Both the position numbers and the translations under genes were made by a program. Below the pieces are notes generated by a model, which saw nothing but the letters and a program-made list of their open reading frames with translations, did not search any database and was not told the origin of the DNA. A stretch of 64,000 nucleotides of DNA from Escherichia coli (GTDB lineage: Bacteria; Pseudomonadota; Gammaproteobacteria; Enterobacterales; Enterobacteriaceae): NCBI RefSeq assembly GCF_030013205.1, contig NZ_CP122648.1. The stretch is one strand, 5' to 3'. Positions 3,679 through 59,100 of the stretch are shown here, in pieces; the stretch's first letter is position 1; the number at the start of each line of letters is the position of its first letter.

Positions 3679-3866
3679 GGTACTCCTCGGCTTGATGCAC
3701 CGATCGTGACGCAAAATTCACTTTGATACAAGGAGAGTGCTAACCATCAGAATTATCTGGATATCCTGGCGAAGCCGCGTAAGTAACATATGCTGAATAG
3801 TGTTAGGCGTTAATTTTAGCCTGTTAATCAATACTATTAAGATTTATTAATCGCTTTAAGGAGAAG

Positions 3867-4097
3867 ATGATGAAAAAGACTGCCGCAATTATTTCTGCCT
3901 GTATGCTGACTTTTGCCCTGAGCGCCTGTTCCGGTTCGAACTATGTGATGCACACCAATGACGGACGTACCATCGTCTCTGACGGCAAACCACAGACTGA
4001 TAACGATACCGGTATGATTTCGTATAAAGACGCTAATGGCAACAAACAGCAGATCAACCGTACTGACGTGAAAGAGATGGTCGAACTGGATCAGTAA
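3867..4097 (+). CDS. ygdI: small lipoprotein YgdI (DUF903)
   Basis: Signal peptide plus LSAC lipobox; tandem ATG at 3867/3870 after AGGAG, true start could be 3870. Confidence 0.85.
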
Positions 4098-4113
4098 TTC
4101 GCGATCGCTAGGT

Positions 4114-4319
4114 AAAAAAAAGCACCGCAATTAGGCGGTGCTACATTAATCACTATGGACAGACAGGGTAAATGTACAGGAAGTGAAAAAAGGTAGCTTT
4201 GCTACCATGGTCTGAATCGCAGACCAATTGCAAACACAACAACACAACATCACAACCGTAAGCCAAAAGTTCACCAGAACACGCATTCCGATAAAACTTT
4301 TCGTTCCGGCTCAGGAAGT
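4114..4319 (-). ncRNA. gcvB: GcvB small regulatory RNA, divergent from gcvA
   Basis: Reverse complement reads ACTTCCTGAGCCGGAACGAAAAG...; contains the G/U-rich GTTGTGATGTTGTGTTGTTGTGTTTG region and ends in hairpin agcaccgcctaattgcggtgct plus U-run; matches recalled GcvB sequence. Confidence 0.85.
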
Positions 4320-4447
4320 GCCGCCACTATAGGTATTTGCTGGTAGAAGCTCAACGGACAATTTATAATGGCTCAGATTAAAAAAACTAATAGGTTACAC
4401 AGTGTGATCTAATTGTTAAATTCATTTAACATCAAAGTTTAAAAGCC

Positions 4448-5365
4448 ATGTCTAAACGATTACCACCGCTAAATGCCTTACGAGTTTTTGATGCCGCAGC
4501 ACGCCATTTAAGTTTCACTCGCGCAGCAGAAGAGCTTTTTGTGACCCAGGCCGCAGTAAGTCATCAAATCAAGTCTCTTGAGGATTTTTTGGGGCTAAAA
4601 CTGTTCCGCCGCCGTAATCGTTCACTCCTGCTGACCGAGGAAGGGCAAAGCTATTTCCTCGATATCAAAGAGATATTTTCGCAATTAACCGAAGCGACGC
4701 GTAAACTCCAGGCCCGTAGCGCCAAGGGGGCGTTGACGGTCAGTTTACTCCCCAGTTTCGCCATTCATTGGTTGGTTCCGCGACTTTCCAGCTTTAATTC
4801 AGCTTATCCGGGAATTGACGTTCGAATCCAGGCGGTTGATCGTCAGGAAGATAAGCTGGCGGATGATGTTGATGTGGCGATATTTTATGGTCGGGGCAAC
4901 TGGCCGGGGCTACGGGTGGAAAAACTTTACGCCGAATATTTATTGCCGGTGTGTTCGCCGCTACTGCTGACTGGCGAAAAACCCTTGAAGACCCCGGAAG
5001 ATCTGGCTAAACATACGTTATTACATGATGCGTCACGCCGTGACTGGCAGACATATACTCGCCAATTGGGGTTAAATCATATCAACGTTCAGCAAGGGCC
5101 AATTTTTAGCCATAGCGCCATGGTGCTGCAAGCGGCTATTCACGGGCAGGGAGTGGCGCTGGCAAATAACGTGATGGCGCAATCTGAAATCGAGGCCGGA
5201 CGTCTTGTTTGCCCGTTTAATGATGTTCTGGTCAGTAAAAATGCTTTTTATCTGGTTTGTCATGACAGTCAGGCAGAACTGGGTAAAATAGCCGCCTTTC
5301 GCCAATGGATCCTGGCGAAAGCCGCTGCTGAACAAGAAAAATTCCGCTTTCGTTATGAACAATAA
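4448..5365 (+). CDS. gcvA: LysR-family glycine cleavage system transcriptional activator
   Basis: 305-aa ORF with N-terminal LysR HTH; recognised GcvA. Confidence 0.95.
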   Translation: MSKRLPPLNALRVFDAAARHLSFTRAAEELFVTQAAVSHQIKSLEDFLGLKLFRRRNRSLLLTEEGQSYFLDIKEIFSQLTEATRKLQARSAKGALTVSLLPSFAIHWLVPRLSSFNSAYPGIDVRIQAVDRQEDKLADDVDVAIFYGRGNWPGLRVEKLYAEYLLPVCSPLLLTGEKPLKTPEDLAKHTLLHDASRRDWQTYTRQLGLNHINVQQGPIFSHSAMVLQAAIHGQGVALANNVMAQSEIEAGRLVCPFNDVLVSKNAFYLVCHDSQAELGKIAAFRQWILAKAAAEQEKFRFRYEQ

Positions 5366-22489: not shown

Positions 22490-22857
22490 GTCGACAGGGA
22501 GTCAGACAACGAAGTGAACATCAGGATGATGACACTTCTGAAGGACACACCAGGATGGTGTTTCAGGGAAAGGCTTCTGGATGAAGCGAAGAGGATGACG
22601 CAGGACGCGTTAAAGGACACCTCCAGGATGGAGAATGAGAACCGGTCAGGATGATTCGGTGGGTCAGGAAGGCCAGGGACACTTCAGGATGAAGTATCAC
22701 ATCGGGGTGGTGTGAGCAGGAAGCAATAGTTCAGGATGAACGATTGGCCGCAAGGCCAGAGGAAAAGTTGTCAAGGATGAGCAGGGAGCAACAAAAGTAG
22801 CTGGAATGCTGCGAAACGAACCGGGAGCACTGTGAATACAGTGCTCCCTTTTTTTAT
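22490..22857 (+). ncRNA. csrB: CsrB, CsrA-sequestering small RNA
   Basis: About 370 nt with numerous CAGGATG / AGGA repeats; ends with hairpin gggagcactgtgaatacagtgctccc plus T-run; 5' end approximate. Confidence 0.9.
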
Positions 22858-22900
22858 TCCTGCTATTCTTCGCGGCAGTTTTTCTTATTGAGGTTGCTTT

Positions 22901-58682: not shown

Positions 58683-58849
58683 AATATCGTACCGCTTAAT
58701 AAACGTCTCTGTCTGAAAAGATGGGGGCGTTTTTATTTTGCGAGCAGCATTCCTGATTTTAAACGTGAACGCCGCTGGAAGAATTATCAGGTATAGAATG
58801 GCGTTGGGTGCTTGAGGCTGTCTGGCGTTAAGCATTCGCGAGGTTCCAG

Positions 58850-58954
58850 ATGGACAAAAGCCCCAGGCGATATTTCTATCAACCTGAGGCCAGCGTTCGA
58901 ACCCAAACAACTCGAATGTTAGTCTCTTCTTTGCAGGGAGGCAAGACATGCTGA
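58850..58954 (+). CDS. mok-like 34-codon upstream reading frame coupled to the hok-like ORF (hypothetical)
   Basis: ATG 58850; stop TGA 58952-58954 lies just after the hok-like ATG (58948). Confidence 0.3.
58859..58909 (-). ncRNA. candidate Sok-like antisense RNA (hypothetical)
   Basis: On - strand: TTGCCT -35 (58939-58944), 17-bp spacer, TAACAT -10 (58916-58921), then a stem-loop (gccccagg / cctgaggc) followed by TTTTG; antisense to the mok-like frame. Confidence 0.25.
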
Positions 58955-59100
58955 CAAAATATGCCCTTGTGGCAATCATAGTGCTGTGTTTTACAGTACT
59001 GGGATTCACGCTGATGGTAGGCGACTCGTTGTGTGAGTTGAGTATCAGAGAACGTGGTATGGAGTTTAAGGCAGTTCTCGCTTACGAATCGAAGAAGTAG
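58948..59100 (+). CDS. Hok/Gef-family type I toxin, 50 aa (hokX-like position between cysH and cas3)
   Basis: [50 protein letters not shown]: hydrophobic N-terminus, SLCE(L/I) and AxxAYES motifs shared with Hok/Gef; AGGGAGG RBS 6 nt upstream; GC hairpin cgcgggg/ccccgcg just downstream; below the ORF-track size cut-off. Confidence 0.75.

Follow-up and report, generated by a model that had tools for sequence, protein, structure and literature searches.

A hairpin shared by the convergent genes gcvB and ygdI of Escherichia coli carries a U-tract in the gcvB direction only

We found that the GC-rich hairpin between the convergent genes ygdI and gcvB of Escherichia coli is followed by a run of U residues in one direction only. 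For gcvB the hairpin is a canonical Rho-independent terminator, but in the ygdI direction it lacks the U-tract by which an intrinsic terminator is defined. Nonetheless, published maps of RNA 3' ends place the ends of both transcripts at this hairpin. We consider it probable that the two RNAs share the hairpin asymmetrically, as a strong terminator of GcvB and, for ygdI, as a stem-loop that defines the 3' end of the mRNA through an inefficient stop combined with trimming. GcvB is among the best-studied small RNAs of the enterobacteria, and textbooks already place its gene between gcvA and ygdI; the locus described here is E. coli gcvB, and its biology is already known.

The DNA examined is a stretch of 64,000 nt from E. 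coli (contig NZ_CP122648.1, assembly GCF_030013205.1), called the window below. It is reversed relative to the K-12 chromosome, and a window coordinate equals 2947015 minus the K-12 coordinate. The alignment of the window to K-12 covered 2,201 bp without gaps and contained 21 SNPs, none of them in ygdI, gcvB or the hairpin; a SNP at 4109 is the sole difference within the ygdI 3' untranslated region (UTR). Of 5,426 complete E. coli genomes, 5,425 matched a 901-bp query (3700-4600), and in 5,387 the identity was at least 99%. The features of the locus are collected in Table 1.

Table 1. Features of the ygdI-gcvB-gcvA locus, with positions numbered in the 64,000-nt window
Feature	Position	Strand	Basis or remark
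ygdI coding sequence	3870-4097	+	ORF list; RefSeq 'YgdI/YgdR family lipoprotein'; identical to K-12
ygdI 3' UTR	4098-4146	+	stop codon to mapped ends; last 32-33 nt antisense to GcvB 3' end
gcvB, 206-nt GcvB sRNA	4114-4319	-	Rfam RF00022; K-12 b4443 (2942696-2942901)
A8 on +, equal to the GcvB U8 tail on -	4114-4121		sequence; tail of Rfam alignment
Shared GC-rich hairpin	4121-4142	both	folding; terminator scan match on - only
ygdI-side tail ACATTAATCACTATG, A/U-rich	4143-4157	+	on -, the part of GcvB directly upstream of its terminator
ygdI 3' end, LB OD 0.4	4145	+	K-12 2942870(-); 36,630 reads
ygdI 3' end, LB OD 2.0	4146	+	K-12 2942869(-); 1,164,820 reads
ygdI 3' end, M63 glucose	4145	+	K-12 2942870(-); 441,780 reads
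Internal GcvB stem-loop GGTAGCAAAGCTACC then T6, terminator-like	4186-4206	-	terminator scan; paired in Rfam consensus
C-rich, G-poor stretch (antisense of R1), candidate Rho-utilisation site	4223-4282	+	20 C vs 5 G
GU-rich region GGUUGUGAUGUUGUGUUGUUGUGUUUG	4231-4257	-	unpaired in Rfam consensus structure
gcvB promoter: -35 TTGAGC (4354-4349), 17-bp spacer, -10 TATAGT (4331-4326)	4326-4354	-	promoter scan
Perfect TATAAT, candidate gcvA -10	4364-4369	+	sequence; at least 95% conserved in 94 sequences
Dyad ATTA-N7-TAAT, candidate GcvA (LysR-type) site upstream of gcvB	4377-4391		conserved block
gcvA, LysR-type regulator of the glycine cleavage system	4448-5365	+	Pfam; RefSeq GcvA

The intergenic region from the ygdI stop codon to the gcvA start codon is exactly 4098-4447. 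Within it gcvB is divergent from gcvA, as the first-pass annotation of this DNA had stated, and convergent with ygdI, the stop codon of which lies 16 nt from the GcvB 3' end. The order ygdI (+), gcvB (-), gcvA (+) agrees with the RefSeq annotation, and the arrangement of gcvA, gcvB and ygdI has been tabulated for Salmonella too (PMC2515195). YgdI is a protein of 75 amino acids that has both features of a YgdI/YgdR DUF903 lipoprotein, namely the domain (Pfam PF06004 DUF903, E 7e-24) and a signal peptide ending in the lipobox LSAC. GcvA matched the Pfam families HTH_1 (2.5e-23) and LysR_substrate (1.4e-40).

An Rfam scan of the whole window matched gcvB to RF00022 over model positions 1-204 of 204, with a score of 199 bits (gathering score 42; E 1.1e-46). 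This strong, full-length match is the outcome of the covariance-model search that had been proposed as a check on the identity of the gene. The sequence is identical to that of K-12 gcvB (b4443), with 0 differences and with the same divergence from gcvA, and the GU-rich region, the internal stem-loop with its T6 and the 3' hairpin with its U8 are all present. The folding z-score of gcvB was -3.6. We take the GU-rich segment to be R1, the putative target-pairing seed region of GcvB, and the 3' hairpin together with the U-tail is known as the Hfq-binding 3' module of the RNA. GcvB represses mRNAs of amino-acid transport and metabolism in an Hfq-dependent manner (PMC11230228; PMC3879156), and its gene is regulated by GcvA and GcvR, with OxyR proposed recently (PMC11230228).

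The hairpin was found at exactly the positions first noted for it, and it folds in both RNAs. Its arms, AGCACCGC and GCGGTGCT, form an 8-bp stem that closes a 6-nt loop (AATTAG). With its flanks the hairpin had a folding energy of -15.4 kcal/mol on the plus strand and -14.3 kcal/mol on the minus strand, and the bare hairpin had -14.4 and -13.8 kcal/mol, respectively. The folding z-scores were -6.2 (+) and -5.0 (-), and none of 200 shuffled sequences folded as well. Therefore, the stable GC-rich stem-loop of an intrinsic terminator is present in the ygdI direction too. In the gcvB direction the whole of a Rho-independent terminator is present, in that the 8-bp stem contains 6 GC pairs and is followed by 7-8 T in 8 nt.

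The first-pass annotation had described the hairpin as flanked by A-runs and T-runs, and half of this description stands: the A8 lies upstream on the plus strand, but there is no T-run downstream. The first 8 nt past the hairpin on the plus strand, ACATTAATCACT, contain 3 T, compared with 7-8 on the gcvB strand. This tail begins with ACA, has no T in the first three positions, and is A/U in 7 of 8 positions. A U-tract immediately 3' of the stem is absent in the ygdI direction, where the RNA reads ACAUUAAU with 3 U in 8. The consensus terminator scan made no call on the plus strand; its two calls here, the hairpin and the stem-loop inside GcvB, are both on the minus strand. A T-score of the tails, with a weighting scheme after d'Aubenton-Carafa et al. 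1990, is illustrative only. Canonical bidirectional intrinsic terminators likewise consist of one GC-rich hairpin between convergent genes with both 3' ends flanking it, but they have an A-tract and a T-tract, whereas only one run is found here, with ACATTAAT on the side of ygdI, and all 109 loci compared below are one-sided in this way. The 'bidirectional terminator' of PMC11230228 was considered and set aside; the phrase is used there for a synthetic cloning part only.

The same asymmetry was found across the Enterobacterales. A DNA-pattern scan of species-representative genomes gave 120 loci, 111 of them with gcvB, and the 3' regions were compared for 109 loci, that is, 108 retrieved loci and this window, all with a complete 3' region. 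Eleven distant GcvB loci were confirmed as full-length RF00022 matches with 132-192 bits. The stem core GCACCGC/GCGGTGC was identical in all but one of the 109 loci (ACACCGC in locus L009), with a variable loop, and the gcvB-side tail had 7-8 T in 8 nt in every one of them. On the ygdI-strand side, more than 3 T in 8 nt occurred in 0 of 109. The idea that the flanking runs make the hairpin an intrinsic terminator both ways thus fails, because the T-run for ygdI is absent in the window as in all 109 loci.

A convergent ygdI was present in 72 of the 109 loci, and in 54 of these 72 a distance of 7-20 nt separates its stop codon from the end of GcvB. There was no ygdI at this place in the other 37, among them loci of Xenorhabdus, Photorhabdus, Proteus, Providencia, Morganella and Edwardsiella as well as of Kluyvera cryocrescens, Raoultella and one Enterobacter. 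Loci without ygdI keep the hairpin, the U-tail and the sequence on the other side of the hairpin, and since the hairpin is kept where ygdI is absent, GcvB alone explains it. The tail sequence ACATTAATCACT was shared by 57 of the 72 loci that have ygdI next to gcvB, and it occurred in loci that lack ygdI as well. The mean number of T in 8 nt of the ygdI-strand tail was 2.67 with ygdI and 1.86 without; we rejected adaptation to ygdI as the reason for the higher value, since the comparison is one between different clades and the tail belongs to the GcvB sequence. In most ygdI-less loci with enough downstream sequence (e.g. L048, L053, L110 and L116), a co-directional csdA lies 60-200 nt downstream of gcvB. 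Hence ygdI appears either to have been inserted between gcvB and csdA or to have been retained there in particular lineages. In one Proteus alimentorum locus (L028, 7763-8735), ten near-identical tandem tRNA genes with a spacing of about 99 bp were seen a few kb from gcvB.

Eight species have ygdI at a distance of 44-278 nt from gcvB, and they give a mixed picture as to a dedicated ygdI terminator. Samsonia erythrinae and Entomohabitans teleogrylli have a hairpin of their own after ygdI, followed by a T-rich tail, and in a third species (locus L096) a long compound hairpin, with TTTTTATTT after it, is arguably a dedicated ygdI terminator. No obvious separate ygdI terminator was seen in the remaining five of the eight. 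These sequences hint that the GcvB hairpin by itself may not be an ideal terminator for ygdI, and that a dedicated one may be used where there is room for it. The Samsonia hairpin in the spacer, AAAAACGCCAGCG...CGCTGGCGTTTTTGTTTT, is flanked by A- and T-runs and is of the type that had been described for E. coli, where it is absent. The separate hairpins after ygdI were seen where the ygdI-gcvB spacer measured at least 67 nt, among loci L087, L102, L096 and L016 with spacers of 67-141 nt.

The ends of the two RNAs are known from Term-seq of K-12. For strain MG1655, Adams et al. 2021 (eLife, PMC7815308, Supplementary file 1) list a 'primary' 3' end of ygdI, which lies antisense to gcvB (Table 1). 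Position 51 of 61 in the sequence column of their table is the 3' end, as we checked on the SgrS row. In three growth conditions the ygdI mRNA terminus was ...GCGGUGCUACA(U), 3-4 nt beyond the stem. The overlap of the ygdI and GcvB transcripts at the hairpin amounts to 32-33 nt when the annotated end of GcvB (4114) is used. In the operational sense, in which both 3' ends flank one hairpin and the transcripts overlap, the published Term-seq data make this a shared, bidirectional 3'-end hairpin. The earlier view that the hairpin is common to ygdI and gcvB is thus borne out by 3'-end mapping, but not by the flanking runs that had been given as its reason in the ygdI direction. The TERMITe 2025 and SMRT-Cappable-seq reports mention neither ygdI nor gcvB.

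A full-length 3' end of GcvB was listed in LB at OD 0.4 only, at K-12 2942894(+), which is window 4121, with 134,815 reads. This is the first U of the tail, compared with the eighth U (4114) in the annotation. The ygdI 3'-end reads were highest (1.16 million and 0.44 million) in the conditions in which the full-length GcvB end is unlisted, and because of this, antisense bleed-through from GcvB was ruled out as the source of the ygdI end; the signal was 12-32 times higher without a listed full-length GcvB end. From OD 0.4 to OD 2.0 in LB, the ygdI 3'-end reads rose about 32-fold, reciprocally to GcvB, to be among the very abundant ends; the rise could reflect strong expression in stationary phase or a very stable 3' fragment. 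In LB at OD 2.0 and in M63 the only 3' ends listed for GcvB were internal, at 4247 and 4252 (-), both inside the GU-rich region, which suggests that they are processed 5' fragments present when GcvB is low.

On the gcvB strand, a strong region of Rho termination is listed at K-12 2943134 (+), which is window 3881 (-) (Adams et al. 2021, Supplementary file 2). It lies inside antisense-ygdI, 233 nt beyond the GcvB 3' end, and its coverage upstream/downstream was 1860/44 without bicyclomycin and 1464/355 with the drug (Rho score 10.25, p 2e-71). It seems, then, that Rho halts within antisense-ygdI any transcription running past the GcvB terminator.

The positions of both 3' ends are given by these published data, and how the ygdI end arises is what we infer in the following. 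Because ygdI stops 16 nt from the GcvB 3' end, its transcript must enter gcvB DNA. We favour, with moderate confidence, a mixture that is weighted towards read-through, downstream release and trimming, in which direct termination has the lesser part. In the ygdI RNA, the hairpin would most likely be an inefficient pause site or terminator, and polymerases that read through it would probably be released further downstream. This release could plausibly be brought about by Rho that loads on the C-rich antisense copy of the GcvB GU-rich region, at 4223-4282, and exonucleases would then trim the ygdI RNA 3'-to-5' back to the hairpin. The C-rich stretch is in the top 0.5% of all 60-nt windows of the 64-kb window and lies 80-140 nt past the hairpin. 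There is precedent for such a course of events, in that Rho-terminated transcripts of E. coli have precise steady-state ends right after stable hairpins without a U-tract (Dar & Sorek 2018, PMC6061677), and the principle of downstream termination followed by trimming to a hairpin was stated by Adams et al. too (PMC7815308). The protective 3' stem-loops of Dar & Sorek 2018 likewise have an end after a U-less hairpin and a downstream region with more C than G. They are usually not preceded by an A-tract, whereas one is present here and belongs to GcvB. Also, that class is Rho-terminated, but no bicyclomycin-sensitive region is found on the ygdI strand in Adams et al. 2021: their bicyclomycin data (Supplementary file 2) list no Rho region on this strand from the hairpin to about 770 nt downstream, no entry naming gcvA or gcvB, and none at K-12 2942100-2942699. 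The data are from LB at OD 0.5 only, a condition of weak ygdI expression, and the 800-nt downstream window is taken up by gcvA mRNA, which makes for poor sensitivity. The negative result is therefore weak evidence.

The main alternative is a true bidirectional terminator, in which the polymerase transcribing ygdI is released at the hairpin with useful efficiency in spite of the missing U-tract. Release would be helped by the stability of the GC-rich stem and by the A/U content of the tail, and the ends at 4145/4146 would be a lightly trimmed product of termination. We regard this as possible but rather doubtful. It accords with the 'primary' ygdI end, which was mapped 3-4 nt beyond the stem under each of the three conditions, with the equal folding of the hairpin in both RNAs, and with a ygdI strand that has no downstream Rho region in the data from LB at OD 0.5. 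Two further observations count in its favour and against our preferred mixture, namely the tail that is A/U in 7 of 8 positions, which makes some direct termination plausible, and the tight ygdI-GcvB spacing conserved among the 72 species with ygdI (7-20 nt in 54 of 72), which fits a real ygdI terminator. Moreover, bidirectional terminators of convergent genes are common in E. coli and often unlike intrinsic ones (Ju et al. 2019, as summarised in bioRxiv 10.1101/2022.10.23.513370). Against efficient release stand the tail itself, with 3 T in 8 after an initial ACA and a negative consensus scan, the fact that a T-run has evolved on the ygdI side in no species compared, and the dedicated ygdI terminator of some species with room in the spacer. 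In addition, a steady-state 3' end reports RNA stability and not the site of polymerase release (PMC6061677). The position of the end, at +3/+4, does not discriminate between the mechanisms, because the Term-seq end of GcvB is at the first U and trimming thus occurs at true terminators too. According to a third explanation, the hairpin only pauses polymerase and head-on collision of the ygdI and gcvB polymerases releases both (model of Ju et al. 2019 and Wang et al. 2022). The genes are convergent with transcripts overlapping by 32-33 nt at one hairpin, and the model was devised for hairpins that terminate poorly alone (bioRxiv 10.1101/2022.10.23.513370). The bidirectional terminators mapped by SEnd-seq (Ju et al. 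2019; e.g. ynaJ-uspE, studied in the bioRxiv paper) are likewise convergent with overlapping 3' ends, and there, as at ygdI/gcvB, the hairpin is unlike an intrinsic terminator in at least one direction. Compared with these pairs, however, ygdI/gcvB has one strong classical direction, and the ygdI end appears independent of convergent gcvB transcription. Because the ygdI end is strongest in LB at OD 2.0 and in M63, where the full-length GcvB end is unlisted and gcvB transcription is presumably low, we judge a collision mechanism very unlikely. The complete intrinsic terminator of GcvB, kept in species without a convergent gene, argues in the same direction. So does the selection of gcvB mutations relieving the repression of yifK in a strain that carried ygdI::cat, inserted 71 bp beyond gcvB on its downstream side, which implies that GcvB repressed normally in that strain (PMC3879156).

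It is also conceivable that the overlap itself has a function, such that the 3' end of ygdI mRNA, complementary to the GcvB hairpin and U-tail, or convergent transcription modulates GcvB, or the reverse. The perfect overlap of 32-33 nt, the reciprocal abundance of the ygdI and GcvB 3' ends across growth conditions and the suppression by Rho of gcvB read-through antisense to ygdI would all suit such cis-antisense regulation, which we nevertheless consider extremely unlikely. Deletion of ygdI does not reproduce the acid-resistance phenotype of gcvB (PMC2676305), both RNA partners are locked in stable hairpins, and the reciprocal expression is explained by the known control of gcvB by GcvA/GcvR. 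Hfq CLASH gave one hybrid only for the ygdI 3' UTR, with aldB, and none with GcvB; a documented ygdI-GcvB pairing was dropped from consideration for this reason. The combined reading, in which the hairpin is a U-tract-independent stop for ygdI and antisense RNAs or polymerase streams cross-regulate and so contribute to the reciprocal expression, has in our estimate only a slight chance of being right. Asymmetric use of the hairpin, with read-through and trimming on the ygdI side, is the reading that we prefer to all of these. On this reading the ygdI 3' end at the GcvB hairpin may reflect protection of RNA and not termination, and the practical lesson is to check both tails before a hairpin between convergent genes is named a bidirectional intrinsic terminator. 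If ygdI does terminate efficiently without a U-tract, the hairpin would be another non-canonical bidirectional terminator of E. coli. The locus otherwise has little significance beyond completeness of annotation; what novelty is left, with a small chance, would lie in regulation through the overlap or in an efficient U-less terminator.

The control region on the other side of gcvB is strongly conserved. Across 97 sequences, this window included, gcvB lies next to gcvA and is divergent from it, and a segment of about 85 bp (4309-4392) was almost invariant among 94 distinct intergenic sequences of Enterobacterales. The -35 and -10 hexamers of the gcvB promoter are within this block, at a conservation of at least 80-95% in the 94 sequences, and the gcvB transcription start at 4319 is 7 nt after the -10. 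On the opposite strand, the -35 that goes with the candidate gcvA -10 is weak (TCAACG), so that the promoter scan did not list a gcvA promoter. The gcvA leader at 4395-4447 was poorly conserved in the same alignment of 94 sequences. The dyad in Table 1 was picked as a candidate GcvA site from the general features of GcvA sites, and it would presumably serve as one. The arrangement fits back-to-back promoters of gcvB (sigma-70) and gcvA that may share regulator sites, judging from the sequence.

Two further loci in the window were noted during the same work. The sRNA CsrB is present at full length at 22499-22858 (+) (RF00018, 382.9 bits, E 2e-111). A toxin-antitoxin locus of the hok/sok type lies at 58806-59100 (+), between cysH and cas3. 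Here a match to the Rfam family 'sok' (RF01794, 107.5 bits, 58806-63) overlaps the start of an intact 50-amino-acid Hok/Gef reading frame (58948-59100); in an identical strain, RefSeq lists the product of this frame as a Hok/Gef family protein. The RF01794 match is on the hok strand and therefore covers the leader of the hok mRNA, not the antisense RNA alone.
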